A stretch of DNA of 64,000 bases. Source: an uncultured Gammaproteobacteria bacterium. GTDB lineage: Bacteria; Patescibacteriota; Patescibacteriia; UBA11705; JABHMO01. Made by a program: the position numbers and the translations under genes. Within the stretch, counting starts at the first letter, position 1. The number at the start of each line of letters is the position of its first letter. Positions 3,439-54,702 of the stretch are shown piece after piece. A model generated the notes under the pieces. The model made no database searches, was not told the origin of the DNA, and was given only the letters and a program-made list of their open reading frames with translations. The DNA is taken from NCBI GenBank assembly GCA_964434235.1, contig CAYSUN010000001.1, positions 18,574 through 82,573 of the forward strand, given 5' to 3'.

Positions 3439-3450
3439 TAATTTATTAAA

Positions 3451-6690: not shown

Positions 6691-6724
6691 ATTTATATAA
6701 GTTAACATAAGATTATCAAGAAAT

Positions 6725-7393: not shown

Positions 7394-7426
7394 TAATTTA
7401 TAATTTTAAATCTTGTATAATAAAAT

Positions 7427-9334
7427 ATGTTTAAACCCAATGATGTCAAGAAAAAACCAGTTTCTTCTGAGATACCAATTCCTAAATTAGAAATACTTAA
7501 CGAAACTGCTTCTATTAAAAATGAGGAAGTAAAAGCTTCAAAACAAAAAGAAGTTTTGGAACAAGAAAAAACGTATCGTAAGGGAATAACTTCGGTTTTG
7601 GATATAGTTGCTCCGGCTGCGTTTGAAGTAAATCCTGATCATGTTCGAATTGGCGGACTTTTTGCTAGAACTCTTTTTGTCATGACTTATCCAAGATATA
7701 TTAACGTTGGTTGGTTTTCTCCAGTTATAAACTATAACGCAACTTTGGATATTAGCATGTTTTTTTATCCAATTGAGGCTGGTGTAGTTTTGAAACAATT
7801 AAAAAATAAAGTTGGTATTTTAACAGCCCAGTTAACTTCAGATTCAGAAAAAGGAGCTCCTCGTGATCCACTTAGAGAAACAGCCCTTCAAGATATTGAG
7901 CAACTTCGAGATGATATTACTCAGGGTACTGAAAAGTTTTTTCAATATGCGTTATATGTAACTTTGTATGAAAAAACTATTAGTGAGTTGGATGTTTTAA
8001 CTGAAGACGTTGAAACTGTACTGGGAACAAGGTCAATAATTTCTAAACGGGTATTTTATCAAGCAGAGCAAGGCTTTAATTCAACAATTCCTATTTCTAA
8101 TGATGAATTAATGATAACTGCTAATCTTAATTCTTCCCCAATTGCTGCTTCATTCCCATTTATGTCCTCGGAGCTTACTTCTGATGATGGAGTTTTATTT
8201 GGTATTAATCGACATAATAACAGTTTAATTTTGTTCGATCGATTTTCTTTGCAAAATGCTAATGCCTGTGTGTTCGCTACTTCTGGAGCTGGTAAAAGTT
8301 ATACTATAAAACTGGAAATTTTGCGGAGTATGATGCTTGGAACAGATGTGATTATTATTGATCCAGAAAGAGAATATAAAAATTTGAATGACGCGGTTGG
8401 TGGAACTTATGTAAATATTTCCTTGAATTCTGATAGTAAAATTAATCCTTTTGATTTACCTCGAAAAATGGGTGATATGTCGGCGGCTGATGTTATCCGA
8501 AGTGCAGTCATTACTTTGAAAGGTTTAATGCGAATTATGCTTGGAAAAATGACTTTTCAAGAAGATTCTATTATGGATAGAGCTTTAATTGAAACTTATG
8601 CTAAAAAAGATATTACTGGTGAATCTGATCTAACCACAATCGAACCACCAATTATGCAGGATTTGTATGATGTTCTTGATGGAATGGATGGTGGAGCTGA
8701 TTTAGCTTTACGTTTGAAAAAATATACTTCGGGAACATTTTCTGGTTTATTTAATTCACCGACTAATGTAGACATGGCCAATCAATTAGTTTGTTTTAGT
8801 GTGCGTGACTTGGAAGATGAACTTCGACCAATGGCAATTTATAACATTGTTAATTATATTTGGAATGTAGTTCGATCGGAAGTAAAAAAGAGAATTTTGG
8901 TAATTGATGAAGCTTGGTGGTTATTGCAACATGAAGATTCAGCAAAATTTATTCACGCTTTAGTAAAAAGATGTCGTAAATATTATTTGGGAGTTACAAC
9001 TATTACACAGGATGTAAATGATTTTCTTTTGTCTCAATATGGTCAAGCGATTGTAACAAATTCAGCTTTGAAAATTTTGTTAAAACAAGCTCCTTCAGCT
9101 ATGGATTTGATTCAAAAAACTTTTCAATTAACTGAAGGTGAAAAATATTTACTTTTAGAATGTAATGTTGGTGAAGGAATTTTCTTTGCTGGTAGTCGTC
9201 ATGCTGCGATGAAAGTTGTGGCTTCTCCGCTTGAAGATAGAATGATTACAACTGATCCTCGACAGTTGTTAGCACAGGAAAAACAGAGAGAAGAAGAAGA
9301 GGCTAAGGAAGCTGAAAGAGAAAATACAGTTTGA
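7427..9334 (+). CDS. virB4: VirB4-like type IV secretion ATPase (central and C-terminal ATPase part)
   Basis: Walker A FATSGAGKSYT; Walker B ILVIDEAWWLL (the DEAW motif typical of VirB4/TraC); N-terminal region with the PRYINVGWFSPVIN..LDISMFFYPI motif seen in Gram-positive VirB4 (TcpF/PrgJ-like). Confidence 0.8.
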   Translation: MFKPNDVKKKPVSSEIPIPKLEILNETASIKNEEVKASKQKEVLEQEKTYRKGITSVLDIVAPAAFEVNPDHVRIGGLFARTLFVMTYPRYINVGWFSPVINYNATLDISMFFYPIEAGVVLKQLKNKVGILTAQLTSDSEKGAPRDPLRETALQDIEQLRDDITQGTEKFFQYALYVTLYEKTISELDVLTEDVETVLGTRSIISKRVFYQAEQGFNSTIPISNDELMITANLNSSPIAASFPFMSSELTSDDGVLFGINRHNNSLILFDRFSLQNANACVFATSGAGKSYTIKLEILRSMMLGTDVIIIDPEREYKNLNDAVGGTYVNISLNSDSKINPFDLPRKMGDMSAADVIRSAVITLKGLMRIMLGKMTFQEDSIMDRALIETYAKKDITGESDLTTIEPPIMQDLYDVLDGMDGGADLALRLKKYTSGTFSGLFNSPTNVDMANQLVCFSVRDLEDELRPMAIYNIVNYIWNVVRSEVKKRILVIDEAWWLLQHEDSAKFIHALVKRCRKYYLGVTTITQDVNDFLLSQYGQAIVTNSALKILLKQAPSAMDLIQKTFQLTEGEKYLLLECNVGEGIFFAGSRHAAMKVVASPLEDRMITTDPRQLLAQEKQREEEEAKEAERENTV

Positions 9335-21969: not shown

Positions 21970-22527
21970 ATGAAAGTTATTCAAAACAAAATCGAGGGTG
22001 TTTTTGAATTTATTGCGACTGATATTGAAGAAACTAAAGTTCTAAGAAAATTGATCAAAGCTTGTAAACCTGGAAATAAATTGAATTATGGTGGATATAT
22101 AGATAATCCGGATAATTCTAGGAGTTTGAATTTCCATTTTGGAGCGAAGAAAAAAATACAAAGAAAAAGAATTAGTGCTTATGCTACTTTGAAAATTATT
22201 GTGCCAGTGGGTGGAATACAGTTGAGTTTAGCTGGAAATGATAAGGAAGATTTAGATAATATTAGGACCTTGCGTGATATTTGTCGTTTGGGGTCAGATG
22301 AGGTCATTTTTCTTAGCGGAACTGAGATTGATGGTTTAGTATCTATCGTTATTGCACCTAGCAATTGTAAGGTTTGTGGAGCTAAAATTGCTGATCTTGT
22401 AAGTTCTGAATTTAATATTTGTGAAACGTGTGCTGGTAACTGTGAGCATGAGTATGAGGAAATATATGTTCGAGGTGTTGGTTTTCGTGATTTTTGTGGA
22501 TTGTGTGGACGAATGAAAGGAGCGTGA
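21970..22527 (+). CDS. Cys-rich hypothetical protein, tandem paralogue A (CxxC..CxxCxxxCxH..CxxC)
   Basis: About 50% identical to the following ORF over its whole length; C-terminal CKVCGAKI..CETCAGNCEHEY..FCGLCGRMKGA. Confidence 0.55.
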   Translation: MKVIQNKIEGVFEFIATDIEETKVLRKLIKACKPGNKLNYGGYIDNPDNSRSLNFHFGAKKKIQRKRISAYATLKIIVPVGGIQLSLAGNDKEDLDNIRTLRDICRLGSDEVIFLSGTEIDGLVSIVIAPSNCKVCGAKIADLVSSEFNICETCAGNCEHEYEEIYVRGVGFRDFCGLCGRMKGA

Positions 22528-22528
22528 T

Positions 22529-23152
22529 ATGAAAATTATTCATGATGAAAAAGAGGGTGTGTTTGTTTTTATTGCGAGAGACGTTGAGGAAACAGAAGTT
22601 TTGAGAAAGTTGATCAAGGCTTGTCAACGAGGAAATAAATTGGATTATGGTGGGCGAAAAACAAATCCGGATAATTCTATGAGTTTAGATTTTTATTTTG
22701 GAGCTAAGGAAAAAGAAGTAGTAAGAAGACTTAGTGAGTGTTGTATTATAATTGATACAGTGCATGTGGGTGGTATACATTTAAGGTTGAAAGGAATCGA
22801 AAATCAAGATCAGAATAATGTTAGAGCATTGCGTGATTCCTGCTATTTCGGATCAGGTGAATTAACTTTTCTTCGTGGGACAGAGATTGATGGTTCAAAA
22901 GCTATTATTGTTGTAGCAGGTTATTGTAAAGTTTGTGGAGGTAAAATTACGGATTCGGGTAGTTGTGAATATAGGGTTTGCAAAAAGTGTGCTGATAAAT
23001 GTAATCATCAATATGTTCATGGATATATTCATGGTGGAGAAATATCACTTGGTAGGGGGGTGTATTGTGAATTGTGTGGACGAGTGAAAGATAATGAAAA
23101 CGTTTTTCCGATTCTTAAACAGGGAGAATCTGGCATTGTGGAAATTTTGTAA
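22529..23152 (+). CDS. Cys-rich hypothetical protein, tandem paralogue B
   Basis: MKIIHDEKEGVFVFIARDVEETEVLRKLIKAC.. parallels paralogue A; CKVCGGKI..CKKCADKCNHQY..YCELCGRVKD. Confidence 0.55.
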   Translation: MKIIHDEKEGVFVFIARDVEETEVLRKLIKACQRGNKLDYGGRKTNPDNSMSLDFYFGAKEKEVVRRLSECCIIIDTVHVGGIHLRLKGIENQDQNNVRALRDSCYFGSGELTFLRGTEIDGSKAIIVVAGYCKVCGGKITDSGSCEYRVCKKCADKCNHQYVHGYIHGGEISLGRGVYCELCGRVKDNENVFPILKQGESGIVEIL

Positions 23153-28657: not shown

Positions 28658-29989
28658 TTATAATAAATTTAATAATTGATTAACTTCTGTAACTTGAATA
28701 GAATTATTTTGTTTTTTAGGAATTATAATATTTTTAAATCCTAATTTTTTAGCTTCCTGAACTCTTTTTTCTAAATTGATAACCGACCGAACTTCACCAC
28801 CAAGTCCAATTTCACCTATGGCAATAGTATCTTTGCTAATGGGTTTATTTCTGAAAGCTGAAATAATAGCGAGAGCAACAGCTAGATCAATAGCTGGTTC
28901 AGTTACTTTTAATCCGCCGACAATATTTAAATGAATATCTTGATTGTTTAGATTGATATTCGCTCTTTTGAATAAAACGGCTGAAAGCATTTGCAATCTA
29001 TTTTGATCGTAGCCCGACGTTTTTCTTTGCGGATAACCAAAAATAGTTGGAGTGACCAGAGCTTGGACTTCAATCAGAAAAGCTCGAGTACCTTCCATAA
29101 AACAGGAAGTTACAGTTCCAGGTGTGATATTTGTTTCATTGGAAAGGAATGCTTTTGTTGGATCTTTTACTTCAGCTAAACCTTTGTCCGTCATTTCAAA
29201 AACCCCGATTTCATTAGTTGAGCCAAAACGATTTTTACTACTTCGAAGTAATCGGAAACCGTGTAATTTATCTCCTTCCAAGTATAAAACTGTGTCAACT
29301 AAATGTTCTAATGTTTTTGGGCCAGCCACCGAGCCATCTTTAGTAACGTGCCCAGTAATTAAAATTGGGATGTTGTTTTGTTTGGCTGTTTGCAAAAGTT
29401 TAACGGTGCAAGCTCGTATTTGGCTAACATTGCCTGATTCAGAATCAACATCTGATGAATAAACAGTTTGAATTGAGTCAATTATTGCGATGCTGGGGTT
29501 GATTGTTTTTATAGCCACGCAAACTTCTTCAATGTTTGTTTCACTTAAAAATTTTAAATTGATAGGTTTATAACCCAGTCGATCAATTCGAAGTTTTATT
29601 TGGCTGGCAGACTCTTCACCTGAAATATAAAGCAGGGGAGCGTTTTGATTTTCTAGACTTTGCAATATTTGTAGAACTAGAGTTGATTTTCCGATACCTG
29701 GTTCGCCACCGAGAAGAGTAATGCTTCCTTTGACAATTCCACCACCAAAGATTTGATCAATTTCTACTAAATTGGTTTTCATTCTTTCAAAGTGTTCAAG
29801 TTTAATGTCGTTAAAATCAGTTAATTTCCCAGAGTCAAATTGTAGTTCTTGTTTTTTTGATTTTTTGATTTTTTGATTTACTGACTCTTGAATTGTTCCC
29901 CAAGCACCACACTCAAGACAGCGTCCTGACCACTTAGGAAACTGTGCATCGCATTTTGAACAGGTGAAGATTGTTTTAATTTGAGCCAT
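28658..29989 (-). CDS. radA: DNA repair protein RadA/Sms
   Basis: N-terminal zinc finger CSKCDAQFPKWSGRCLECGAW, Walker A GGEPGIGKSTL, RadA signature KNRFG, Lon-protease-like C-terminal domain. Confidence 0.9.
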   Translation of the reverse strand: MAQIKTIFTCSKCDAQFPKWSGRCLECGAWGTIQESVNQKIKKSKKQELQFDSGKLTDFNDIKLEHFERMKTNLVEIDQIFGGGIVKGSITLLGGEPGIGKSTLVLQILQSLENQNAPLLYISGEESASQIKLRIDRLGYKPINLKFLSETNIEEVCVAIKTINPSIAIIDSIQTVYSSDVDSESGNVSQIRACTVKLLQTAKQNNIPILITGHVTKDGSVAGPKTLEHLVDTVLYLEGDKLHGFRLLRSSKNRFGSTNEIGVFEMTDKGLAEVKDPTKAFLSNETNITPGTVTSCFMEGTRAFLIEVQALVTPTIFGYPQRKTSGYDQNRLQMLSAVLFKRANINLNNQDIHLNIVGGLKVTEPAIDLAVALAIISAFRNKPISKDTIAIGEIGLGGEVRSVINLEKRVQEAKKLGFKNIIIPKKQNNSIQVTEVNQLLNLL

Positions 29990-30003: not shown

Positions 30004-31377
30004 TTATTTAATGGTAATTGGACAAGTCCCTGCACCAGGCACAGCTTGAAATAATTTCTCAGCATGGTATTTGTCAATTATTCTTTGTTTTCCAGCTTTT
30101 CGAACTGAAACAGCTTTACCAGCCCCAAACATTTCACCACCAATCGCAGCTTCTTCTAGATTTTTATAATTACCACCAGTCCATTTGCTATTTTGATAAC
30201 CGCCATCACCAGCAGTACATTCTGACTTACCTTTATCAAAAGCATTTTCTTTGCAACGTTTGACAATTAATTGTTTCCAAGATTCAGTTAGTCCTTTTTC
30301 AATATTTGTACCACCATTACAACCTCCAAGTTTAAGTGTGTTACCAAGACTGGCCGTTCCACTGTTGTGATAAAGATAAAGTAAAGTGGCAATATCAGAA
30401 TCACTTAATTTACTAAGATCGCCTTTACAAATAGTATTAATCTTTTTTATGGCGAGCATAGTCATGCCAGTTACACCCATTACCTGAACTTTATCTAAAA
30501 TAAGGCGTGAATCATTTTTTAGTATAGGACTAGTTGATACCCCGATTTGGTTTAAGTAATAGGCAGTATCTGCCCCGCCTGTCCAGCCTTTCATTGACGC
30601 TGTCCAAGTGTCATATTTGAATTGGTACAAACCTTTGAAACAAGCACAATTTACTAATCCAGGTCTAAAGCCAGATTCATGTTCACACATTCCCACTAGA
30701 ATATTATAATTGAAGTTACCGCAAGCAGCAAAGTCTTTCATGAGTTGAACTAGTGAGTTTTTGTCTGGATGAGGATCACTATTTGTTGGCACACCGCAGT
30801 ATTCAAGAACTGAGTTTTTAGGGGCAGGACATTTACCACCTGATCCACCACTTATCCAGCCTTCTCCATCTGCTTTTTCCGCATAAACTGGATCTATGTT
30901 AAAATCCAGTGGAATGTTTTCAATTAAAGTGGTTTTTAGATTGGTTAAATTTGGATTAATTGTGTTCAAAATAATGTTTGTAATTAATAAAATTACTAAA
31001 CCTAATAAAGCGCTGGTCATCATTGATTTTGATTTTTGTATACCTGCTGGATAAGCACCAGCTAAAACATAAAAAAGTCCACCAATCATAAAGACAAGAG
31101 TCGCCACAATAGAGCCCAAAATTATACCATAATTGTAAATACCAACTAGATATTCAACAATCCAAGGTGATGAAGAAAATTTTCCTCCTTCAACCATAAC
31201 TTTTGATAAAGATGGCATGTTGGGAATTGGAATGCTGATTTTAGGTTGAATGGCTTCTTTTGCTTTACTTTCTGATGTGGTTGTTGCGCTTTGTGCAGAA
31301 ACAGAAGGAACCAAACAAATGCTAACGAGAAGACAGGTTAGGCTAAATAAGAATAAAATTTTAGTTTTATTTCTCAT
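30004..31377 (-). CDS. secreted/membrane-anchored protein with lytic-transglycosylase (SLT)-like domain; N-terminal signal plus two-helix module shared with the next gene
   Basis: SLT-like motif GMCEHESGFRPGLVNCACFKGLYQFKYDTW (ES..GLMQ-type); N-terminus is signal peptide + WIVEYLVGIYNYGIILGSIVATLVFMIGGLFYVLAG + ..ALLGLVILLITNIILNTINPNL. Confidence 0.5.
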   Translation of the reverse strand: MRNKTKILFLFSLTCLLVSICLVPSVSAQSATTTSESKAKEAIQPKISIPIPNMPSLSKVMVEGGKFSSSPWIVEYLVGIYNYGIILGSIVATLVFMIGGLFYVLAGAYPAGIQKSKSMMTSALLGLVILLITNIILNTINPNLTNLKTTLIENIPLDFNIDPVYAEKADGEGWISGGSGGKCPAPKNSVLEYCGVPTNSDPHPDKNSLVQLMKDFAACGNFNYNILVGMCEHESGFRPGLVNCACFKGLYQFKYDTWTASMKGWTGGADTAYYLNQIGVSTSPILKNDSRLILDKVQVMGVTGMTMLAIKKINTICKGDLSKLSDSDIATLLYLYHNSGTASLGNTLKLGGCNGGTNIEKGLTESWKQLIVKRCKENAFDKGKSECTAGDGGYQNSKWTGGNYKNLEEAAIGGEMFGAGKAVSVRKAGKQRIIDKYHAEKLFQAVPGAGTCPITIK

Positions 31378-31418: not shown

Positions 31419-33770
31419 CTATTTTGCAATATAACCTTTGTTGGTTTTGTACCAGTTAGATGTTCCAGCTCCACACTGTTTTAAATCTACAACGCCAGTA
31501 ATTGCTTCAGATGGGGTAAGTGCTTTTTCACACGTTCCACCAGGTGTGAATGTTCCCTTCAGATTTACGCAGGTTTCAGGACTTGTTTTTATGCCGTTTT
31601 CGGGATTTGTCAATCCTAGGGAATAAGCAATTAAATCGCTTTTGCAACAACCAGATTCGCCTGCATCTAAATTATCTTCGGGGAAAAACACAATGTTTGC
31701 AACTGTTCCTGATCCTCCGCCATGGACACATTGATTTGTTGATCCTGCATTTGATGAAATTGGATTTAAGTTTTCGATGGTGCCATTTCCATTACTAACA
31801 CATTTACTCATTAAATCATTTTGCTTATATGTGTCTTTGTTGGCTTTAGGACAACCTGTTGCAGCACATTCTGATGACCAGCCTGTGTTTGATTCAACTA
31901 TTTTTCCTTCGCCTAGTGAAATAAATACATGTTGAAGTGTGCCACCGTTACATCGGAACATTGCTCCGGCCGGAAGTAGACTTGGATATTTTGATGCAGC
32001 CCCACCACCAACAATAAGAGCTTTCCATCTTAAGTCAGTTAGTTGAGGTCCTAAGGCTCCAATACAAGTAGCGCCTGGTAGTTTGCAACCAGAGTTTTTT
32101 AAAATTCTTGAAGATATTTTAGCACAACTATTTGGCGCTGTGAGGAAGTCTTTTGCATTAGCCCAAGCAGTACCAACATTTTTTATGTCAGTTGAAGTGC
32201 ATTTCAAAAGTGAATTGTAGCAACCTGTACCACTATTGAATTTAGAGTAATCTGGAAATTTGGATGCATCCGCTTCTGGACATTCCCCAGTTGAAGGATC
32301 AAAGTTGGGTGGGTTGTAAGCGCTATCATCTGCCGTTGTTAAATTAGCTGCTATTCCATATTCACCTGGTTTATAAAAATAGGTAGAATCTGCTATTCCG
32401 CAATCATCCCAGATGTCTTGAGCAGAGGCTGTTTTTAGACCTCGGTGAACTGGATCATTTATACCATATACTCCTCCAGAATAACTGGTTAAAACTATGT
32501 AATGACCATTTTTAGTGAATTTGCACTTTGGATGATCTCTTCCAATTGACCTAATTATAACTGGAATTCCTTTTGAAAGTAATTCAATAAGTTTTGGGTC
32601 ATCTTTTGGTCTGTTCCAAACAGATTCTGATTTTAGTCCGTTTGCAGTAGCCAATTCTGCCATCCCTTTGTCATCAAAACCACAACAAGTCTGAGCTTTG
32701 CTTCCAGAAACAGAGCCAGCTGGTGCGCGGATGCCATTTAGCTGTATCCATTTAGCAACGTCAGGTGGAGTAACACTAATTCCATAATAGTTCAAAACCA
32801 TTGCAGATGAAGTTAGTCCACAGCCAGAAGATTGAATCACGTTAGTGTTGGGAGTGCCACCAGTGCTATTTGTCATTTTTGAATTTTTACAAAATTCTAC
32901 AAAATTATTTGCGCCCCATGGGTTTTTACTACACCACGCTGAATCTTTGACATTTGGATTGTTACAAAGTTCAGAAACTTTGTAAGTCTTTTCTAGCCAT
33001 TCACAGTAATTTACATCAGTTTTAGGATATTTGTCATTTTTAAATTTACAAGAAAAAATACCAAATTGAGGTGGGTTAGAAATGCCTGGCATTTCCATTT
33101 TGTAACCCGCAGTACCACAGGCGACCGCATATTTACCTAGGCCAGGAACTTCAACCTTACCATTTTGATAACTGCAATTATTGCCAGTTAGAGGATAACA
33201 TGCCCATTGTATGTCAGTCTGAGCATAGTAAACAACTTTTCCTGTGCCAGTTGGGGTGTTTGTTACTGGAGTATTTGCAAATTCACTTTCATTGATTACT
33301 CCATCTGAGACAGATTCAATTAGCGTTGTTTTTAGATTTACTAGATTGGGGTTTATTGTATTCAAAATAATGTTTGTGCACATGAGAATAACCAGACCGA
33401 TTAAAGCACCAGATATCATTGATTTAGCTTTTTGTATTCCTGATGGATTTGCGCCTGCCAGAACATATAATAATCCACCAATCATCAAAATCAGTGTAGC
33501 CACGATTCCTCCAAAAATTATTCCATAGTTATAAATTGCAACTAAATAATCAACGATCCAATTGGTTACATATGTTTGACCAGGAGTGAATTTAATGCTA
33601 TCCCAGGCATCTAGACCAGGAATTTCTACACGAACTTTCGGAGCTGGTAGTTCAACTTCTTCCTGCACTTTTTGACTGTATGTGAGATGAAGAGGTATTA
33701 AAATGAAAACAAAAATAATAATTGTTGAAAGAATGATTTTTTTATAATATTTTTTTTTTGTTTTTGTCAT
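31419..33770 (-). CDS. large Cys-rich secreted protein with peptidase-C39-like (papain-fold) domain; shares N-terminal two-helix module with 30004-31377
   Basis: SSGCGLTSSAMVLNYYG resembles the C39/C39_2 catalytic-Cys motif; the N-terminal ~110 aa are paralogous to the downstream gene. Confidence 0.5.
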   Translation of the reverse strand: MTKTKKKYYKKIILSTIIIFVFILIPLHLTYSQKVQEEVELPAPKVRVEIPGLDAWDSIKFTPGQTYVTNWIVDYLVAIYNYGIIFGGIVATLILMIGGLLYVLAGANPSGIQKAKSMISGALIGLVILMCTNIILNTINPNLVNLKTTLIESVSDGVINESEFANTPVTNTPTGTGKVVYYAQTDIQWACYPLTGNNCSYQNGKVEVPGLGKYAVACGTAGYKMEMPGISNPPQFGIFSCKFKNDKYPKTDVNYCEWLEKTYKVSELCNNPNVKDSAWCSKNPWGANNFVEFCKNSKMTNSTGGTPNTNVIQSSGCGLTSSAMVLNYYGISVTPPDVAKWIQLNGIRAPAGSVSGSKAQTCCGFDDKGMAELATANGLKSESVWNRPKDDPKLIELLSKGIPVIIRSIGRDHPKCKFTKNGHYIVLTSYSGGVYGINDPVHRGLKTASAQDIWDDCGIADSTYFYKPGEYGIAANLTTADDSAYNPPNFDPSTGECPEADASKFPDYSKFNSGTGCYNSLLKCTSTDIKNVGTAWANAKDFLTAPNSCAKISSRILKNSGCKLPGATCIGALGPQLTDLRWKALIVGGGAASKYPSLLPAGAMFRCNGGTLQHVFISLGEGKIVESNTGWSSECAATGCPKANKDTYKQNDLMSKCVSNGNGTIENLNPISSNAGSTNQCVHGGGSGTVANIVFFPEDNLDAGESGCCKSDLIAYSLGLTNPENGIKTSPETCVNLKGTFTPGGTCEKALTPSEAITGVVDLKQCGAGTSNWYKTNKGYIAK

Positions 33771-33782
33771 TTTTGTTTTAAA

Positions 33783-35072
33783 TTATTTTAGGTTTATCAA
33801 ATGTAACCCTTGTGTTGTTTTGTCAGTGTAATACAATTTTGAACCATCTTTTGAAACTTGCATTTGTTCAATTGAATATCCAACCTCTGGTTCAGCAACA
33901 AAACTTTTAACACCTGTTTGTAAATTTATTTTGTATATATAATCAGGAATGTCATCAGCTAAAGCAGGAACTAACCCAGCGCCATAAGGTAGTTCTTTTG
34001 GTACTGCACAGTACATTTCAGTGTTTGAAGAAAAAGTACATTTGTCAGCCCAAGTGTTCAGTTTTAGACTGTAATTGTTTTGACCAATATTATTTCCTGA
34101 AGCATCCACTACATATAAAAGTGGCTTGTGATCAGAAAATTGATTTTGAACACTATAAACTAATTTGTTTCCATCTGGAGACCATTCTATTTGTGGGTCA
34201 TAACCATTAAGGTTTATTGATTTGAAATTTTCTTCATATTGACCCAAGAAAAATAGTTCACTTGTCGAAGCAGATTTGGCAGTTTTGTAACTAGCAATTA
34301 TTTTGTTATTTGGTGACCATTCAGTAATAAAATTATTTGCTTCATCACCCATGTATTCAATGTATTTTTGATTTGAACCATCAGCATTAGCCGTTCCTAA
34401 GAATTTATATTCTGGATTTGGGTTATCATCTTTAAAAACAATTTGACTGCCAGTATTATTAAAACCAAAGTCAGTCCAATCTTTTGGTAAACTTATTTGT
34501 TTGTCGTTTTCAAAGTTGTACAGAATATTTGAGCCATCGGGAAATTCCAAAATTGCTTTTTCTGAGTTTGGTGCCCATGTTATATTCTCAACATTTTTAT
34601 AAGTTCTATTTGAGTATAATTCATGATCTCCATAAAATGTTATTTTTTGAAAAAGTCCAGTGTTCTTATTGTAAACTATAGTGTCATTTCCATCAGGAGT
34701 TAATGCTAGACTATCAACAGTTTGAAGACTTAAATTTGTTATGGCAGTAATACCCCCTTTCGCATATGAGTCAGCAGTTGTTTCGTAATCAATTTCTGGA
34801 GTTATTTTAATAACAGCGTTAAAATCACTTTCCTCCGCGACTTCAGCTTGTGGAACTTCAGATTCTCCTGGAGTGAAAATTCCAGGTTGCTCACCTTGAT
34901 TAGCTCCTTCTAATTGTTTGATATCAATCTCTGTTTTTTCACCAACTTCTTCATCAATGACGATTGATTTGAAAAATAATTGGTAAATACCTAGTCCAAT
35001 TAAAATACACAAAAGAATAAACGCAAATATTAAAGCAATCTTTTTCCAGTCAAAGTTTTGTAAATTGAACAT
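33783..35072 (-). CDS. membrane-anchored beta-propeller protein (TolB/PD40-like repeats)
   Basis: N-terminal TM; repeated W/SP(D/N)G(N/S)K(I/L)(V/A)(Y/F) motifs (TPDGNDTIVYN, APNSEKAILEF, WSPNNKIIASY, WSPDGNKLVYS, SKDGSKLYYT). Confidence 0.55.
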   Translation of the reverse strand: MFNLQNFDWKKIALIFAFILLCILIGLGIYQLFFKSIVIDEEVGEKTEIDIKQLEGANQGEQPGIFTPGESEVPQAEVAEESDFNAVIKITPEIDYETTADSYAKGGITAITNLSLQTVDSLALTPDGNDTIVYNKNTGLFQKITFYGDHELYSNRTYKNVENITWAPNSEKAILEFPDGSNILYNFENDKQISLPKDWTDFGFNNTGSQIVFKDDNPNPEYKFLGTANADGSNQKYIEYMGDEANNFITEWSPNNKIIASYKTAKSASTSELFFLGQYEENFKSINLNGYDPQIEWSPDGNKLVYSVQNQFSDHKPLLYVVDASGNNIGQNNYSLKLNTWADKCTFSSNTEMYCAVPKELPYGAGLVPALADDIPDYIYKINLQTGVKSFVAEPEVGYSIEQMQVSKDGSKLYYTDKTTQGLHLINLK

Positions 35073-35096: not shown

Positions 35097-36680
35097 TTAG
35101 AATAAACCTGAAATGTCGCCACTTAAAGCTTCTGCTAAAACTACTCCAGCTAAAACTGCAGCCACAATAATAATTATTACAGGTAGAATTGGACCGACAC
35201 AAAATGCACAAGTAGAGCAACACATTCGGCAACCTTTGATTATTTTTATAATAACTTTAAATACTTTTCCTATTTTGCCACCAAATTTAGTAAACCACTG
35301 GGCAATACTACAACTAAATTTAAATTGTTTAGTTGGTAAACAACTGTTGAATTTTTTCATTGGATTCATTCTATCTATACAATCAGTAGCGTTTTTTCTG
35401 GCCATTGCTTTCATTTTATTGGCTTTTTGATTTGCCATTTCTTTGGCTTTTTGTTTAACGAGGTCAGCATTTTCCTTCATTGATCTTTGTCTTATGGCGT
35501 TTAACTGTAGTTGCATCTGTTTTGCCTTTTGTTGCATGGCTTTGGCTTGGGCAATCGGGGATTGTCTTTGGTTTGACTCGTTTTTGTTTTCTGATCCGCT
35601 TGGTTTGTCTTCTGGGGAAGGTGGTTCATCTTGATTTTCGCTGTAGGGCGTAGTGCCCTCTTTTTCGGATTGTTTTTGTTTGCGAAAATCTTGTAAACTT
35701 TGATTTTGATCTTGTTGTCTTTTCTGATCAATGGCCCGTTGTCTATCAAGTTGTCTTTTTATAGATCTTTCATGATCAGCATCACCAGTTGTTCTACCGC
35801 CAAGTGGTTCAGCATACCTAGGTTTTGCTGGTGGAGTAGGTTGTTGTTGCTGTTGTTGTTCAGAAGCTCTTTGCTGATTTACCGGGGGTGCAGAAAGATC
35901 TGGGATGTTGCCGTCAGCCATTTGAGTGGCAGCTTGATTTTGTTTGTTTTTTTCTTGATCTGAAAATTCGCCTTCAGGATTTGTTGAGGTGGATTCTGGT
36001 TCTGTTGGGTTATTGGTTTCCTGTTTTTTTGCTTCTTCATCCCCATTCTTTCCATCTTCAGATTTTAAATTGTCAGATTCTGGGTTGTCATTTTTTGGTT
36101 CTTCTGTTTGATTGTTGTTGTCAGGTTTTCTATTGTCAACAAAAGCTGGACTTGGATTACTGGCGTCGTTGTTATTATTCTTGCTATCGTCGCCGTTACC
36201 TTCTTCATCTTCTTTACTGTCGTCGTCATCATTCTGATTTTTTGAAGTTTTTTTCTTGGCTTCGGCAAGCGCTTGGCCATCAGCTGTTTTTTTGCCTCCA
36301 GCGGTTGGCTTACCAGATTCTTGTCCTGGTATTTCGGGTTTCTTTTTTTTGGTTTTTTTCTTTTTCCTAGTATTTTCGTTACTGCTTGTAGTAGTTCGAT
36401 TGTCTTGGTTCATTAAACCATTTTCAGCAGGATCTTTAGTCTCAATTTTTTGCCTTGATGATTGGGTTTGTGGAGTTAGATTTATTTCGATCTCTTTTTC
36501 TTCAGGTTCAATTTTACTGGTTATTGAGATTTCTTCTTGTTCTTCAGTTGGCGGGTTAGATTGATTATTTGATTTATTCGGAGTAATTGTTTGATTATCT
36601 AAAACAATATTAGCATTACTCGGTAATGATTTTAGCTCTATACTTTCATTTTTATCCTTTGTTTTATTATCGTCTGCCAT
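35097..36680 (-). CDS. highly disordered, charged (K/E/D/N/Q/P-rich) protein with Cys-rich C-terminal tail anchor
   Basis: ~480 aa of low-complexity charged sequence (poly-Q, KKKKTKKKK, NNNN runs), then CRMCCSTCAFCVGPILPVIIIIVAAVLAGVVLAEAL at the C-terminus. Confidence 0.6.
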   Translation of the reverse strand: MADDNKTKDKNESIELKSLPSNANIVLDNQTITPNKSNNQSNPPTEEQEEISITSKIEPEEKEIEINLTPQTQSSRQKIETKDPAENGLMNQDNRTTTSSNENTRKKKKTKKKKPEIPGQESGKPTAGGKKTADGQALAEAKKKTSKNQNDDDDSKEDEEGNGDDSKNNNNDASNPSPAFVDNRKPDNNNQTEEPKNDNPESDNLKSEDGKNGDEEAKKQETNNPTEPESTSTNPEGEFSDQEKNKQNQAATQMADGNIPDLSAPPVNQQRASEQQQQQQPTPPAKPRYAEPLGGRTTGDADHERSIKRQLDRQRAIDQKRQQDQNQSLQDFRKQKQSEKEGTTPYSENQDEPPSPEDKPSGSENKNESNQRQSPIAQAKAMQQKAKQMQLQLNAIRQRSMKENADLVKQKAKEMANQKANKMKAMARKNATDCIDRMNPMKKFNSCLPTKQFKFSCSIAQWFTKFGGKIGKVFKVIIKIIKGCRMCCSTCAFCVGPILPVIIIIVAAVLAGVVLAEALSGDISGLF

Positions 36681-36699: not shown

Positions 36700-37012
36700 T
36701 AGATCGAAATTACATGAAAAATATTAATATCTAAAATTAACAGATATTATTTTGAAATACGGTCTTTGTTTTTGTATTTTCTGTTAATATTGTATAATAA
36801 TTATACTTTAGCGTCAAAAGCAAAAGTGGGTAAATACACAAGAAATCAAAAAACCAAGAAAACAAGAAAGCAAGAAAGTATGAAAGCAAATACTTAGCCT
36901 TTGTAAAGTATCTTAAGCTACCCTTTGTTTCTTAGTTTCTTATTTCTTTATTTCTTTATTTCTTTTTAACTCACTATTCATTACTTATTTACTTAACACT
37001 TAACTTAACTCT
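36700..37012. repeat. divergent promoter region rich in CAAGAAA/TTTCTTG and TACTTAACACTTAAC word repeats
   Basis: Same repeat vocabulary as the 9.3-10.0 kb block. Confidence 0.6.
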
Positions 37013-38125
37013 ATGAAAAAATTTATTTTGGTTTTGATTTTATGTTTGTTGGCTATTCCAGCTGTTACTTTAGCGGGTGGATCTTCAGATGAAAATGTTT
37101 TTATTCCAAAAGAACAAGTAATTTCTGATAATTATTTTGTTATTGGTAATACAGTTGATATTTCAGGTACATTAGAAAAAGATGCTTACATTATCGGACA
37201 AAATGTCGTAATTAGTGGAACTATTAAAGGTGATTTGATTGGCGTTGCTAACAGTTTAAGAATTGACGGAGTAGTTGAGGGTAATGTTCGATTTTTAGCT
37301 TCTGAAATGGATATCAAGGGTGAAGTTTATAAAAATATTACAGTTGCTTCTGGTAATTTAGTTGTTTTAGGCAAATTAAATCAAGATTTAATTGGAGCAG
37401 TTGGTTCTGCTGATTTACAAGGCGAAATGTTGGGGAATGTAAATCTTGTGGCTAGCAAAGTAAATGTGGATAAAAATATTGCTGGTAATTTATCATTACG
37501 TTTAGATGAAAATGGGACAATGTCTTTTGCTGAAGAAGTGGAAATTGGAGGAAATTTAGCTTATTCTCCAATTAAAAAGGAAGTTGAGGGTTTATCTGGA
37601 GTAACGGTTGTAGGAGAAACGAAGTTATTGAAAATAAATAAAAGTCTTAATATTAACAAAGCGTATAATTATATTTATTTATATAGTCGAATTGCTTATT
37701 TTTTATCTTTGTTGATGATAGTTTTAGTAATGTTAAGTTTCATGAAAAAATTTACTGTTCAGTTATCTTCACTTTTAGCCAAAGAACCACTTAGATGTTT
37801 TAATAAAGGTTTTTGGTTTGTAATTTTAGTTCCGCTTGTTTGTTTGCTCTTGTTGTTCACTTTGGTTGGTTTGCCATTGGCCGGGATACTTATGGCTTTG
37901 TATATTATAGTTTTTTATATTAGTAAAATTTTTGTTGGGTTAGCAGTTGGTATGGTTGTCTTGAAACAAGATTTTACAAAAGCAAAGTTAATTTGGCCAG
38001 CAGTGTTAGGTGTATTTTTAGTTGTAATTGGAGTTTCAATACCATTTATTGGTTTTCTGGTTAACTTATTGCTAACTTCCGCTGGGTTTGGAGCGCTTTA
38101 TATAATTTTGAAAAGGGAAAAGTAA
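37013..38125 (+). CDS. membrane protein with N-terminal signal, bactofilin-like beta-helical repeat region, and C-terminal multi-TM domain
   Basis: Repetitive G-x-hydrophobic pattern (GNTVDISGTLEKDAYIIGQNVVISGTIKGDLIGVANSLRIDGVVEGNV..) typical of DUF583/bactofilin-type beta-helix; ~5 TM helices in the C-terminal 150 aa. Confidence 0.4.
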   Translation: MKKFILVLILCLLAIPAVTLAGGSSDENVFIPKEQVISDNYFVIGNTVDISGTLEKDAYIIGQNVVISGTIKGDLIGVANSLRIDGVVEGNVRFLASEMDIKGEVYKNITVASGNLVVLGKLNQDLIGAVGSADLQGEMLGNVNLVASKVNVDKNIAGNLSLRLDENGTMSFAEEVEIGGNLAYSPIKKEVEGLSGVTVVGETKLLKINKSLNINKAYNYIYLYSRIAYFLSLLMIVLVMLSFMKKFTVQLSSLLAKEPLRCFNKGFWFVILVPLVCLLLLFTLVGLPLAGILMALYIIVFYISKIFVGLAVGMVVLKQDFTKAKLIWPAVLGVFLVVIGVSIPFIGFLVNLLLTSAGFGALYIILKREK

Positions 38126-50517: not shown

Positions 50518-53500
50518 ATGCGTAAAAAAAATCAATCAGCTGAAAAAATTGAAGATTCTACCATTGTTGAAGAACCTCAATTTTCCATGGAACAAATAGC
50601 TGAGCAAAGCAAAGAAAAAATTATTGAGATCAGCCAAAGGAAGGCAGAAAAAATACAAAAGCAAGATGAATTGTTAGATCGAATAATTGATATTAACCAG
50701 CAATCATTGACTGAAAATGTTCCAGAGCAAGAACTGCAATTTTCTGATGTGAAAAATAAAATTGATGAGTTAACAGATCAAATTTTTGATGTAGAAACTA
50801 TGCTCAAGCGATTCAAGGATGGTTTTGATTACGCTCAGCTAAGTTTAGTCTTAGAACGCATTCAGCAAGTTTTCAATGATTTAGAAACAGTTATTTCGCA
50901 AGCTAATAATGAGGTAATTAAAACGGAAGCTCGAATTAAGTTATTGATTAGTTCCAAAGAAAAATTAATTGCCAAACAGCAAAAGTTAAAAGGTTTTTGG
51001 CAAAATTTATTTAAATCCAAAGAACAAGATAAGACTGCTCAGTCAATATTAAAAGCTGAAGAAGATTTACTTCAGTCTCGAAACAATCTTTATCTAGATA
51101 AAGAATCTTTAGCCACAATTCAACGTGAAAAAGAACGTCTTGGTGCTAAACAAGAAAAGCTCTTGATTGCGGCCCAGATTAGGAACTTTGATTCAACTGT
51201 TGTTTCTAAATTAAGTTTAATAGATGAATTGCTGGATGATGATTTGGTAATGGCCTATGAATGGGAGTCTATGCAAATTGTAGTGCCAACAAAAATAGAA
51301 AATTTGTCTAGTAAACTTGAAACTCCTTTAACTGAAGAAGAAAAAACTAAACTTTATAATTTGCTTGAGCGGAGATTTAGAATCAGCAAAGACGAGAAGC
51401 CTGTAGATAAAGAGAGCAAGTTGAAAGAACTTGATGCAGAAATCGAAGCTATGCGAGGGAGGAAAGAAGCTGATTTTCATTTTGGTTTTGATTCAGAAAG
51501 AGAAGAAATGAAAAGTTTCTTGCGAGAGATGACTGAACAATACGGTGCGGTTGTTGGGTCAGACCATAAGCGAGTTTGTAAAAATTGGTTGAACTTATTT
51601 ATTCGTCACAATATAAAGCCAGAGTTAGATGCTCTAACCCAAGAGATTATTGATAAACAGCCAACAGAAGAAGTCCAAGCAGAAGTAGCTAAAAATATTA
51701 AGGCATATATAGATAGTACTTATCACACATCAGTAAATTTGAAACATTGGGAAGATTTAGCCATAAAATGTGAGCCAGAGGCTTGGCTTGGTATGAGAAA
51801 AGTTTTGTTGGCTTCAGGAGAGTATTCAGCTGAAAGTATTAAAGATTTTGAAGATTGGTATGCTGATATTTTAATAGAAAAGAATTTGTTTAGCGGAGGT
51901 TCAGAATCTTTTGCCGGTTCAACGGCCGTCAGTAATATAGCAAAAATTGAACATTTTCAGTCATTGCCAAGAATGTACGAATTTTGCGTGAGCCATGATC
52001 CTAGCCATACAACCACAGCTACAATTCGTGCCATGAAAAATTTATTGGTCAAAAGTGATCAAACGGAATTGGCAGAGTTTTTACAAAATCTACCACAGCA
52101 AACCAGAAATATGTTTGAAGTATTAATCGACCCAAATTCAGCTTTAAATTTTTATGGTGAAAGTGAAGGACTTCGTTTTGAAGACTTTGCTTTGGTTGAG
52201 CCTGAATTAACTTTAATGAAAGAAAAACTGGTAAAAGATTTAAGGAAAAAAAATTGGAGCGATCAGGCAATTCGCGAAGCCTATAATCTAACTGGTAATA
52301 AATTTGAGGTTCTTGAAAATTTGAAAAAATTAGTATTAGGTTTGGGATTAAATTTTTCTGAGTTTGCTCAAGCCTATTTTCGTCAATTGTTTCGAGATTT
52401 TGACCCGAAAAACGCAGATGATCTAAAATTTTTGGATTTATATTGCAAGGAAACGGGTCTTGAAAAAGAGAGAATTTGTTTGGATCTCGGTTCTGTTATT
52501 ATTGAATCGCCAACCAATAAATTAATCGCTTCTTTAGCGTCGCCTGAACACGGTGACAACGTGCATTTTTGTGAGTTAATATTAACGGAAGAAGCTAAAT
52601 TCCCTGAAGAGGTAATAGCCAAGTTAAGAAAAATTTATTTAAAAGATGAAGTAAAAAAGCAAGCTAAATTAAGGCAAGATTTAGTGGTTCTCAGTGTGAT
52701 GATTTCTGCAAATGAGAAATCTGGGATTCTGAAAAATATTATAGAAGTATATGATTTTGATAATCCATTAGAAGTTTCTAATCTAGAAAAAGTTGTGGCT
52801 TATTATTTATACTTGCAGAGATTTATAGAATATAAGGAACTTTATGTTGATAAAGATTCACCAAACTTACGGTCAATAATAGACGAAAAGATAATGAGTT
52901 TAATGAGCTTGAAAGAAGTTGAAGAATATTTAAGCGAGATTATAAAATCTTTAGCTAGAAGTTCTCAAATTTCTTTTATTCAAAATGCTGATAAAACAAT
53001 TTGGAAATTAGTTTACGGAGAAGAGGCAGTAGAGAAATTTTTAGATGTTTTGCCAACTGACTCACAAGAAAAAAGAAATGCTTTTACACATAATGATTAT
53101 GATCGCACAACTGAATTTTTTAAATTTATGTGTGTTGGCAATGATAAGACAACTTTAAATCAAGAAAACCTAAATATTTTTACTCAGTACGTTCAGCGAT
53201 TTGGTCTTTCGAAAACTCGGCTTTTGTTTGACTATGCTCGAAATATAATTTTGTTCAAGGAACAAGGAATTGATCTGCCCTACCATCAAGAGCAAGACGG
53301 AATAGATTCATTTGATAAGCTGGAAGAAAAATTTAAAAAAATAAAAGAAATTTTGTTTGGGGAAGAAGAAGTTTCTGATATGGCTAATTTATCTAACTTG
53401 GAAGTTGAATTTCTCAATGTTATGACTGGTAAAAGTACTCATCGTTTTGATAGAGGTCGGCCAGATATGCAAAGGATTATTAACGATTGGAATAATGATA

Positions 53501-54702
53501 GTAAGTCTGAAGAAATAGTTCCAAAACCAGAAGAATATCAATCGTTCTCGTTGGAAGTTCAACGAGCAAACGTTACGGTCGATGTAGACGTTATTCGTAA
53601 TGAGTATGAAGAGTTAAAAATGAATATTTTAGAGGCTTGCAAAGATCCAGAAGATGTCCAAGGATTAAAAGCTAGAGCCTTGTCGATTATTAAGCAAAAA
53701 ATATTAGAGATTGAGCAAATGGTTGATGCTAATCCAGAAAATTCTTTTATCCAAAAACAATTAGTCAATTATCAAACTATCCACCAGAATTTGGGACAGG
53801 TCAATGATTTGGATCAGTTGTTAATTGCGTTACTGTCAGTAGAAAAAGGTTTTGCTCTTAAAAATAATATTGATTCGATAGTTCGAGAAATTTTAATAAA
53901 AAAAGTTTTTCGAATGAATTTTTCCGAAGATACTTTAGCTCAGTATATTGGCGTTTTAGAAAAACCAATTTCAGTAAAAGGAGTTTTGGGAATGGTTAAT
54001 ATAGTTAATAATTTTATTAAGGATCATGTTATAAATTTAAGCCGAAATAATCAAGAGGGCTATTGGAGTGAAGAGGCTTGGCAGAAAATATTAGCGACTA
54101 AAAAGAATTCTAAGTTAATTGATGTTACTAAAGTTTTTAAAACACAAATTGATGCCCTAACCAAAGAAATTAAAAGTGCCAAAGTCGAAGACGTGTTGGA
54201 GCCTTCGCTGGCAGTTCAGTTTATTCCTGATCGTGGTTTTGTAGGCGAAATGTCAGGATATTTAGCTGATGTTTGTTACACAGCTGAGTATCCATTGTTA
54301 AAAAAATGGCCGAATGTTGTTCCGTTTAAGTTAGTTTATACGGCTGATGATGGATCAAAAGAGTTCCTCGGTTCAGTCTTGGTTTTTGAAGTAACACAAA
54401 AAAATGGGGAAAAGGCATTGCTTGTTAGAGCTTTTGATGTACCGCAAGAAGAAGATTTTAATATAAGTAAATGTATTGAGAGCTTTTTAGATGCCATGCA
54501 AGATTTGGGTAAAAAGCGTGGAGCTACAAAAGTGCTGGTGCCTGGAGTTAATGGCGCAATCTCCAATTATTTAATGACAGTTGCACACATAAAACAATAC
54601 GTAACTGATAAAACCGCTGTGTCTTTAGCTGAAGAGTTTAAATTTAATGGGGAAAGTTATAATTTAACAGATAATTGTTTTGTGGCTAGAGAGATAAAAT
54701 AA
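50518..54702 (+). CDS. giant hypothetical protein (1394 aa) without signal peptide or TM, coiled-coil N-terminus, embedded in the pilin operon
   Basis: Continuous ORF; 5 nt after the upstream pilin-like gene and 2 nt before the next pseudopilin gene. Confidence 0.6.
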   Translation: MRKKNQSAEKIEDSTIVEEPQFSMEQIAEQSKEKIIEISQRKAEKIQKQDELLDRIIDINQQSLTENVPEQELQFSDVKNKIDELTDQIFDVETMLKRFKDGFDYAQLSLVLERIQQVFNDLETVISQANNEVIKTEARIKLLISSKEKLIAKQQKLKGFWQNLFKSKEQDKTAQSILKAEEDLLQSRNNLYLDKESLATIQREKERLGAKQEKLLIAAQIRNFDSTVVSKLSLIDELLDDDLVMAYEWESMQIVVPTKIENLSSKLETPLTEEEKTKLYNLLERRFRISKDEKPVDKESKLKELDAEIEAMRGRKEADFHFGFDSEREEMKSFLREMTEQYGAVVGSDHKRVCKNWLNLFIRHNIKPELDALTQEIIDKQPTEEVQAEVAKNIKAYIDSTYHTSVNLKHWEDLAIKCEPEAWLGMRKVLLASGEYSAESIKDFEDWYADILIEKNLFSGGSESFAGSTAVSNIAKIEHFQSLPRMYEFCVSHDPSHTTTATIRAMKNLLVKSDQTELAEFLQNLPQQTRNMFEVLIDPNSALNFYGESEGLRFEDFALVEPELTLMKEKLVKDLRKKNWSDQAIREAYNLTGNKFEVLENLKKLVLGLGLNFSEFAQAYFRQLFRDFDPKNADDLKFLDLYCKETGLEKERICLDLGSVIIESPTNKLIASLASPEHGDNVHFCELILTEEAKFPEEVIAKLRKIYLKDEVKKQAKLRQDLVVLSVMISANEKSGILKNIIEVYDFDNPLEVSNLEKVVAYYLYLQRFIEYKELYVDKDSPNLRSIIDEKIMSLMSLKEVEEYLSEIIKSLARSSQISFIQNADKTIWKLVYGEEAVEKFLDVLPTDSQEKRNAFTHNDYDRTTEFFKFMCVGNDKTTLNQENLNIFTQYVQRFGLSKTRLLFDYARNIILFKEQGIDLPYHQEQDGIDSFDKLEEKFKKIKEILFGEEEVSDMANLSNLEVEFLNVMTGKSTHRFDRGRPDMQRIINDWNNDSKSEEIVPKPEEYQSFSLEVQRANVTVDVDVIRNEYEELKMNILEACKDPEDVQGLKARALSIIKQKILEIEQMVDANPENSFIQKQLVNYQTIHQNLGQVNDLDQLLIALLSVEKGFALKNNIDSIVREILIKKVFRMNFSEDTLAQYIGVLEKPISVKGVLGMVNIVNNFIKDHVINLSRNNQEGYWSEEAWQKILATKKNSKLIDVTKVFKTQIDALTKEIKSAKVEDVLEPSLAVQFIPDRGFVGEMSGYLADVCYTAEYPLLKKWPNVVPFKLVYTADDGSKEFLGSVLVFEVTQKNGEKALLVRAFDVPQEEDFNISKCIESFLDAMQDLGKKRGATKVLVPGVNGAISNYLMTVAHIKQYVTDKTAVSLAEEFKFNGESYNLTDNCFVAREIK

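Follow-up and report, generated by a model that had tools for sequence, protein, structure and literature searches.

The window analyzed here, 64,000 nucleotides (nt) of contig CAYSUN010000001.1, carries on its minus strand an open reading frame (ORF) of 527 codons (35097..36680) whose product joins a long, densely charged chain to a Cys-rich, hydrophobic C-terminal end. The ORF begins with ATG, and its 527-amino acid (aa) product ends ..KIIKGCRMCCSTCAFCVGPILPVIIIIVAAVLAGVVLAEALSGDISGLF. Downstream on the same strand lie, in order, genes for a bitopic β-propeller protein, a VirB2-like–C39 fusion, a second, weakly PF18895-like protein, RadA and a YibE/F protein (Table 1). The original prediction, made from the letters of the sequence, took the gene to be real and to head an operon, and described its product as an almost wholly disordered polyampholyte with a Cys-rich C-terminal tail anchor.

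Coding evidence and relatives

At 527 open codons the ORF is 2.5 times as long as the longest obtained in 2000 shuffles (mean 76, maximum 206 codons). Its codon-position composition, with G at ∼0.30 in position 1 and ∼0.09 in position 3, equals that of the neighboring gene, and the N-terminal 287 codons, which form the unconserved part, carry the same gene-like bias. The opposing explanation is that the ORF is non-coding, or was made by frameshifts, in AT-rich DNA full of A-runs. Twelve homopolymer runs occur in the gene, nine A-runs of 6–8 bases fall within codons 77–243, and the exact 527-aa protein is absent from a collection of 15 billion sequences, full-length searches likewise returning no matches. 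However, the other two forward frames of the ORF contain 27 and 62 stops, and the A-runs therefore show no sign of the homopolymer frameshift that the original prediction had named as a possible refutation. The second refutation it had proposed, the absence of any ortholog, fails as well: in no fewer than 17 further genomes or contigs, an ortholog of matching architecture stands at the equivalent position. Its remark that the opposite strand has no long ORF needs qualifying, as a 160-aa antisense ORF exists (35888..36370, plus strand), although its length is within the range of the shuffles. An artifact is effectively refuted, with a negligible chance left to it. The ORF is a genuine gene of an ultrasmall Patescibacteria (candidate phyla radiation, CPR) bacterium, as the shuffles, the codon-position bias and the orthologs at the matching position all indicate.

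Direct searches for relatives were nearly empty. A full-length search of 5.8 billion clusters gave 0 matches, low-complexity words having filled the candidate list. A phmmer search of 1.84 billion representatives, with the last 167 aa as query, returned a single fragment (P0121), and a profile of 14 C-terminal modules gave just 3 matches at E ≤ 0.01. A metagenome scan with an alignment of the window protein, L003 and P0121 (L numbers denote related loci) had no matches, so no closer strains of the window protein were found. The 527-aa protein has no match in Pfam (full protein, E ≤ 0.1) or NCBIfam, no relative in the PDB by sequence or by Foldseek and, like its three downstream neighbors, no match in PHROGs or PADLOC. 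Orthologs were found by synteny, at loci fetched through homologs of the adjacent propeller gene. This neighbor has 538 homologs at E ≤ 0.001; of the best 120, those that carry a taxon name are nearly all from Patescibacteria. A public protein collection also contains a 100% match to its product (P0001, encoded on a 97,976-bp NCBI contig) but not the 527-aa product; the source annotation may have missed the gene or called it differently. In exact look-ups neither the window protein nor P0001 is on record.

The positional orthologs include proteins of 574 aa (L001), 503 aa (L003), 444 aa (L084), 310 aa (L085), 432 aa (L086) and 612 aa (P0004 contig), and ten more loci (L004–L012 and L015) come from a set of 80 species-representative genomes (Falkowbacteria, Kuenenbacteria, Parcubacteria). 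By BLASTP the window protein aligns with its L003 counterpart over residues 288–501 (E = 8e-38) and with that of L001 in the central motif only (E = 4e-13). Residues 1–287 align with neither, though the adjacent gene is 55–60% identical there. Public copies of orthologs (KKR07882.1, OGF37994.1) are labeled ‘hypothetical protein’. Judged by these comparisons, the gene represents an undescribed, lineage-restricted family. Homology between this Cys-string family (‘type A’) and the positional counterparts at Buchananbacteria-like loci (‘type B’, with AWLNL..FGL..FCKFGEEW) could not be shown (hhalign probability 2%), and type B was left out of the family.

Disordered chain, conserved motif and membrane module

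The description as a polyampholyte holds well. Residues 1–440 contain 71 K+R and 79 D+E, with a fraction of charged residues (FCR) of 0.34, a net charge per residue (NCPR) of −0.018 and 11% hydrophobic residues. Charge patterning over this stretch is marginally blockier than random (kappa 0.22 vs 0.18 ± 0.02). FoldIndex is negative in each 51-residue window to about residue 450, and single-sequence AlphaFold2 models leave residues 1–296 without secondary structure, at a predicted local distance difference test score (pLDDT) below 50. Overall, ∼60% of the protein looks disordered. That ‘almost the whole protein’ is disordered is therefore correct for residues 1–296 and too broad beyond them, where two long, confidently predicted helices and a conserved motif stand and ∼110 residues are helical. 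The multiple repeats reported by the original prediction were not confirmed. KKKKTKKKKPE, QQQQQQ and NNNN are all in the protein, ‘ESTST’ occurs just once, and Tandem Repeats Finder detects a poly-Q (CAA) run and a Lys run and nothing else. True tandem repeats were accordingly rejected, and the ‘repeats’ are low complexity rather than repeat units. We infer that this variable intrinsically disordered region (IDR) acts as a flexible tether or spacer.

Several positional counterparts (L001 4246-5970 and the upstream genes of L034, L029, L038 and L079) begin instead with 7-residue Gly-rich repeats (GMKAAGT / AGKGVEV, ∼10–20 copies) that flank a Gly-zipper-like hydrophobic stretch, a composition far removed from the K/E/D/N/Q chain found in the window protein. 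Between lineages the disordered part is therefore swapped wholesale.

The hypervariable residues 1–296 give way to a strongly conserved linear motif (KPRYAEPLGGRTTGD..KRQLDRQRAID). The family consensus, [KR]P[R][YF]AEPLGG[KR]TTGD..H[EQ]+..K[RK]Q[LM]DRQ+.ID, corresponds to residues 286–320 of the window protein. Two comparisons of near variants within the orthologous L005 lineage gave 97% identity for the motif, 79–99% for the C-terminal module, 51–90% for the middle linker and 45–57%, with indels, for the N-terminal IDR. No other element of the protein is as constrained as the motif, and the contrast between a conserved tail and a variable chain, which the original prediction had proposed as a test, is borne out in this lineage. 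The motif may bind a cytoplasmic partner. ClpC is named as a candidate for the sole reason that in several relatives clpC directly adjoins the gene.

Two long helices, the first of which begins within the motif, are separated by a variable linker (Table 1). A coiled coil was considered and rejected: the heptad moment against permutations is z = 1.2 for residues 299–341 and −0.8 for residues 375–443, i.e., without heptad signal, and no amphipathic periodicity was found in either helix. Helix 2 is basic (NCPR ∼+0.17), and the D-x-x-D-x-x-N-P-x-K-K sequence at its end is common to a subgroup (L003, L010, L086 and P0121).

The C-terminal module agrees with the tail anchor and membrane-adjacent Cys cluster of the original prediction. 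AlphaFold2 places helices at residues 469–487 and 492–520. Segment 458–487 is amphipathic, with a Lys face and a hydrophobic moment of z 2.8–3.8 against permutations. All eight Cys of the protein lie within its last 94 residues, five of them in the string at 484–494, which directly precedes the hydrophobic core VGPILPVIIIIVAAVLAGVVLA of the predicted transmembrane (TM) helix. Across the family the module comprises a helix that is amphipathic or hydrophobic, in some members an (E/D)ENTD(K/R) insert, then the Cys string and a TM segment whose proline stands in an LLP/ILP motif; the tail often resembles EIIDxDTxLxxF. At least three Cys per 12 aa occur in 17 of 19 family members, L004 and L009 having no string, while the number of Cys (3–7) and their spacing vary. 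Such strings are otherwise uncommon: of the 897 ORFs with a length of 120 aa or more in 85 related loci and the window, 22 have at least four Cys per 12 residues, and 13 of these 22 belong to the tail-anchored gene family. Variation in number and spacing, together with occasional loss, argues against a metal site of fixed geometry. The string may strengthen membrane attachment or oligomerization, through lipidation or through metal or disulfide bridging.

Two topologies had been offered, a cytoplasmic brush and an inverted surface fiber, and the evidence favors the first. The sole hydrophobic segment spans residues ∼486–523, its most hydrophobic 19-residue core being 498–516. The N-terminus is hydrophilic, and no N-terminal signal peptide was found in the 527-aa protein. 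In 15 members the TM core ends 0–23 residues from the C-terminus. The 40 residues before the TM segment and the tail after it contain 7 and 0 K+R, respectively, here, and 71 and 8 over the 15 members. The operational marks of bacterial tail-anchored proteins, no signal sequence and a single TM segment near the C-terminus, are both present, and such proteins are documented (PMC3087755, PMC6794478, PMC3426401). A cytoplasmic N-terminus (N-in, C-out) is favored because of the missing signal peptide, the terminal position of the TM segment, the K+R bias and the length and dense charge of the N-terminal domain. The Cys string would then lie at the bilayer edge on the cytoplasmic side, and the short acidic tail outside.

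On the opposite topology (N-out), the charged chain would be a surface-exposed adhesin or hydrated brush beside the extracellular propeller and hydrolases. The N-terminal half does vary in sequence and length (171–612 aa among the positional orthologs found), as is typical of exposed proteins, every co-oriented partner has extracytoplasmic domains, and an outward-facing bacterial tail-anchored protein is on record. Yet this topology requires a C-terminal TM segment to lead ∼480 residues, a fraction of 0.34 of them charged, across the membrane. The protein has neither a signal peptide nor an N-terminal hydrophobic segment, and positive charges are concentrated on the N-terminal side of the TM segment. 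The Cys string would, moreover, face the oxidizing side at the bilayer edge. We regard a surface fiber as quite unlikely.

Gene neighborhood

A 332-nt upstream spacer with a promoter-like site separates the gene from a divergent gene (37013..38125), with which it is shared. The product of the latter is a bactofilin-like membrane protein, and relatives have a DUF8173 protein at the equal position. From the tail-anchored gene to the YibE/F gene the minus-strand string has gaps of 24, 12, 41, 14 and 2 nt. In this window the gene does appear to head an operon, in keeping with the spacer, the divergent gene, the promoter-like site and the 24-nt gap to its neighbor. The description does not extend to the family: clpC lies 0–23 nt upstream in three relatives (L001/L002, L084 and the P0004 contig), although no clpC precedes the gene in the window. 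In these relatives (L001 1823-13278; L084 250-8398; P0004 contig) the cassette stands between clpC and radA, two genes that are adjacent in the Bacillus clpC operon. This arrangement suggests that the cassette was inserted between genes whose linkage, clpC–radA, is ancestral.

The same gene order recurs in L001, L003, L084, L085, L086 and the P0004 contig. A blind scan of 876 ORFs for a disordered N-terminus combined with TM segments confined to the C-terminal end retrieved 14 ORFs, all 14 immediately upstream of a propeller gene on the same strand. The linkage is one-way: more than half of the 80 loci from genomes have some other gene upstream of the propeller gene. The propeller protein itself gives weak TolB/PD40 matches. 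A specific function for it was sought by Foldseek and given up, since only generic WD40 and 7-bladed propellers were returned. Between its TM segment and the propeller lies a low-confidence stalk (residues 40–106) of ∼65 residues. At its N-terminus, a short cytoplasmic segment (N..N..WKK) hardly varies among 30 homologs and may contact the tail-anchored protein.

Both genes that follow the propeller gene encode proteins with PF18895-type anchors (Table 1). No Pfam match was found for their unassigned C-terminal domains, even at E ≤ 10. By eye, and as leads without a Pfam match, the 457-aa protein has an SLT-like pattern (EHESGF..GLYQF..YHNSG) and the 783-aa protein an NlpC/P60-like one (HVFISLGEGKIVES). 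In relatives the downstream proteins carry Amidase_2, VanY or Peptidase_C39_2 domains, and those with VanY or C39_2 also have a weak PF18895 match (e.g., in the P0004 contig and at L084 5284-7029), with an Amidase_2 protein next to them. We therefore read the cassette, from these domain assignments, as probable membrane-anchored hydrolases of cell-wall type. If the VirB2-like anchor polymerizes as VirB2 does, the hydrolases would be displayed on a pilus-like structure.

C39 peptidases cut after GG, and no dipeptide of the motif is better conserved than its GG. The 527-aa product could accordingly be a pro-protein, cleaved at ..AEPLGG/RTTGD.. (the slash marks the cut) by the Peptidase_C39_2 protein encoded two genes downstream. 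However, this GG stands at residues 294–295 of 527 rather than at the end of a 15–30-residue N-terminal leader, and the C39-like domain, which follows a signal/TM segment and a VirB2-like hairpin, is predicted to be extracellular while the motif is predicted to be inside. Relatives also retain the motif with Amidase_2 or VanY partners. Such processing is very improbable.

Elsewhere in the window, the plus strand carries the core of a type IV secretion system (T4SS) of monoderm type at 6232..9334, with a PrgI/VirB3-like gene (6232..6690), a weak TraC-like fragment (6725..7393) and a VirB4-like ATPase gene (7427..9334). Three ORFs of 1049, 520 and 406 aa ahead of it (289..6230) have no Pfam match and could be VirB6/PrgH-type components. 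Two adjacent plus-strand paralogs of 185 and 207 aa (21970..22527 and 22529..23152), with C-terminal CxxC-type Cys pairs, likewise have no Pfam match, nor does a 1394-aa plus-strand ORF (50518..54702) at E ≤ 0.001.

The presence of VirB4/PrgI-type genes in the window and of radA at the end of the gene string would suit a membrane–nucleoid tether, in which DNA or RNA, bound by the basic helix at residues 375–443 and by the Lys block, is tied to the membrane near the T4SS/RadA machinery. Basic A/K-rich helices lie by the anchor here and in L003, L010 and L086. Nevertheless, no DNA-binding domain was found, the cytoplasmic part is net acidic in many orthologs (e.g., −0.33 in L006 and −0.19 in L084), the T4SS genes are ∼26 kb away on the opposite strand, and the clpC–radA linkage may be ancestral. 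We consider this role distinctly improbable.

Table 1. Positions in the window of the 527-aa gene, of the segments of its product and of neighboring features (residue numbers refer to the 527-aa protein unless a neighbor is named)
Feature	Position	Strand	Basis
Complete gene (527 codons + stop) for a predicted tail-anchored, disordered membrane protein	35097..36680	-	ORF length against shuffles; codon-position bias
Hypervariable polyampholyte IDR, residues 1-285 (basic block ~104-150, acidic block ~150-250, Q/P stretch)	35826..36680	-	pLDDT <50; no similarity even to closest ortholog
Conserved linear motif KPRYAEPLGGRTTGDADHERSIKRQLDRQRAIDQK, residues 286-320	35721..35825	-	Common to L001, L003, L007, L084; partly L004, L005, L085, L086
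Predicted long helix 1, residues 299-341, beginning within the motif	35658..35786	-	pLDDT 90-96, AlphaFold2 single-sequence
Variable acidic P/S-rich linker, residues 342-374	35559..35657	-	Pairwise comparison; AlphaFold2
Predicted long basic A/K/Q/M-rich helix 2, residues 375-443, ending in DCIDRMNPMKK	35352..35558	-	pLDDT 89-95 over 381-430
Predicted Lys-faced amphipathic juxtamembrane helix SIAQWFTKFGGKIGKVFKVIIKIIKG, residues 458-483	35232..35309	-	Hydrophobic moment against permutations; predicted helix 469-487
Cys string CRMCCSTCAFC, residues 484-494	35199..35231	-	Five Cys inside a 120-degree helical arc
Predicted TM helix with conserved Pro VGPILPVIIIIVAAVLAGVVLA, residues 495-516	35133..35198	-	Hydrophobicity; AlphaFold2; LLP/ILP motif conserved
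Short acidic tail EALSGDISGLF, residues 517-527, predicted outside the membrane	35100..35132	-	Akin to ortholog tails ..EIIDxDTxLxxF
Promoter-like site TTGACG-17-TACAAT (10/12)	36789..36817	-	Consensus match only
Bitopic protein: TM 9-33, disordered stalk 40-106, 7-bladed β-propeller	33783..35072	-	AlphaFold2 with 30-sequence alignment, pLDDT 83; 24 nt downstream
VirB2-like (PF18895) anchor + Peptidase_C39_2 + further Cys-rich domain	31419..33770	-	Pfam
Weak PF18895-like N-terminal anchor; C-terminal domain without Pfam match	30004..31377	-	Pfam
RadA-like gene, 14 nt downstream; conserved end of the string in relatives	28658..29989	-	Own sequence; RadA-type Pfam on positional counterparts

Proposed role and comparison with known systems

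We tentatively propose that the protein is an N-in, C-out tail-anchored adaptor or scaffold on the cytoplasmic face of a propeller–hydrolase envelope module, a role that its predicted features and gene context suggest and that we hold to be just short of probable. It would be inserted post-translationally, as other bacterial tail-anchored proteins are (a YidC-type route), and its membrane module would sit among the TM segments of the cassette proteins, i.e., the bitopic propeller and the VirB2-anchored hydrolases. The conserved motif would recruit a cytoplasmic factor, and the IDR would serve as tether or spacer.

Several points weigh against this proposal. Synteny is evidence of linkage, not of a complex, and the propeller and hydrolases work without the tail-anchored gene in many lineages (it is absent in more than half of the 80 loci). 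For the two downstream proteins of the window, identification as hydrolases comes down to one Pfam match (C39_2), their other domains having none. The topology call draws only on rules of charge and position, and the orthologs of ENTD type carry an extra hydrophobic segment that could alter topology. One Streptomyces tail-anchored protein has been reported to face outward (PMC3087755).

In the tiny genomes of Patescibacteria, a 1.6-kb gene kept at a fixed position by envelope enzymes is probably useful. The family gives handles on a little-understood question, namely by what means such epibionts reshape their cell wall or get through that of a host. Its ∼35-residue motif, ∼97% identical where the flanks are ∼50% identical, could be used as bait for a cytoplasmic partner. 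The ∼95-residue membrane module is a compact unit that a surrogate host could express for work on its topology and on any lipidation or metal binding. The strictly linked VirB2-anchored hydrolases are a third handle. For now the family remains a well-delimited conserved hypothetical protein, of value for these handles on a CPR envelope module.

The general layout recalls TolA and ZipA, which have a single N-terminal anchor, a long, charged, partly helical low-complexity region and a folded C-terminal binding domain; TolA works with the β-propeller TolB. The window protein also has one TM segment and a long, charged, partly helical low-complexity region, and its neighbor has the weak TolB/PD40 match. 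However, its anchor is C-terminal, its binding element would be a linear motif, and the fold match of the propeller is generic. A study of T4SSs in Patescibacteria counts PF18895 proteins as VirB2-like pilins (PMC12102498). The window belongs to the same phylum, has PF18895 in the downstream neighbors and contains PrgI- and VirB4-like genes, but that paper makes no mention of the 527-aa gene, disordered proteins, propellers or C39 fusions. The 527-aa protein matches no T4SS component in Pfam or NCBIfam, and the VirB4-like gene is ∼26 kb off on the other strand.

Among bacterial tail-anchored proteins, the tail-anchored membrane proteins (TAMPs) of Streptomyces, DjlC and Flk of Escherichia coli and TssL of type VI secretion systems (PMC3087755, PMC6794478, PMC3426401) share with the window protein the lack of a signal, the single C-terminal TM segment and a bulk predicted to be cytoplasmic. 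TssL is, in addition, a membrane subunit of an envelope machine. Their cytoplasmic domains are folded, whereas the window protein is mostly disordered and has a Cys string. The Cys clusters of coronavirus S and influenza HA (PMC8227752) likewise lie at the cytoplasmic edge of a TM segment and vary in number and spacing, as expected of lipidation sites rather than a metal site. The viral clusters follow the TM helix, where the string here precedes it, and they are acylated by host DHHC enzymes.

CYSTM/CYSPD (PF12734) is a eukaryotic module of tail-anchored proteins (PMC2804304; PMC10840359). Its members resemble the window protein in having a variable, non-globular N-terminal part and a module at the extreme C-terminus with ∼5 Cys, some adjacent, on or at a terminal hydrophobic helix, mostly on one helical face, and an acidic residue after the helix. 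The published CYSTM pattern is a terminal TM helix that bears 5–6 Cys, 3–4 of them consecutive, with an acidic residue behind it. The window protein has five Cys within residues 484–494, only two of them adjacent, at the N-terminal edge of the TM segment, and E517 after it; orthologs have CCC or CCCC. The differences are considerable. CYSTM proteins occur only in eukaryotes and are shorter than 150 aa, whereas the window protein is bacterial and 527 aa long, and after its Cys string comes a distinct TM segment of 20 residues, hydrophobic throughout. The conserved cytoplasmic motif, long helices and fixed gene neighbors of the window family have no counterpart in CYSTM. PF12734 gave no match to the full protein at E ≤ 0.1 or to the 14 C-terminal modules at E ≤ 10, and we read the window protein as a CYSTM analog, not a homolog.

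The same parallel invites the explanation that the Cys string is itself the functional end of the protein, for S-acylation, Cu/Zn/Cd chelation or redox buffering, and that the position of the gene is incidental. Yeast CYSTM proteins are palmitoylated, and the string is strongly enriched in the tail-anchored family. Still, we think this unlikely, given that PF12734 shows no relation even at the loosest threshold, that L004 and L009 do without the string, that the cytoplasmic linear motif and not the string is most conserved, and that so tight and exclusive a synteny is hard to call incidental. Nor is any bacterial protein S-acyltransferase of DHHC type known.

The adaptor proposal and the Cys string can be joined in one further conjecture, which we rate as improbable. 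The string would be the bacterial counterpart of the S-acylated Cys clusters of eukaryotes and viruses, or a thiolate–metal cluster at the membrane edge, and a lipid-scavenging CPR bacterium would post-translationally lipidate, or metal-bridge, a tail-anchored scaffold that links a cytoplasmic partner to VirB2-anchored cell-wall hydrolases at host contact. If true, bacteria would possess a so far unrecognized activity for protein S-acylation, and the protein would be an envelope-machine subunit of a new type. The family would also be a clear bacterial instance of a ‘disordered chain plus Cys-lined tail anchor’, an arrangement so far described only in eukaryotes, as CYSTM.

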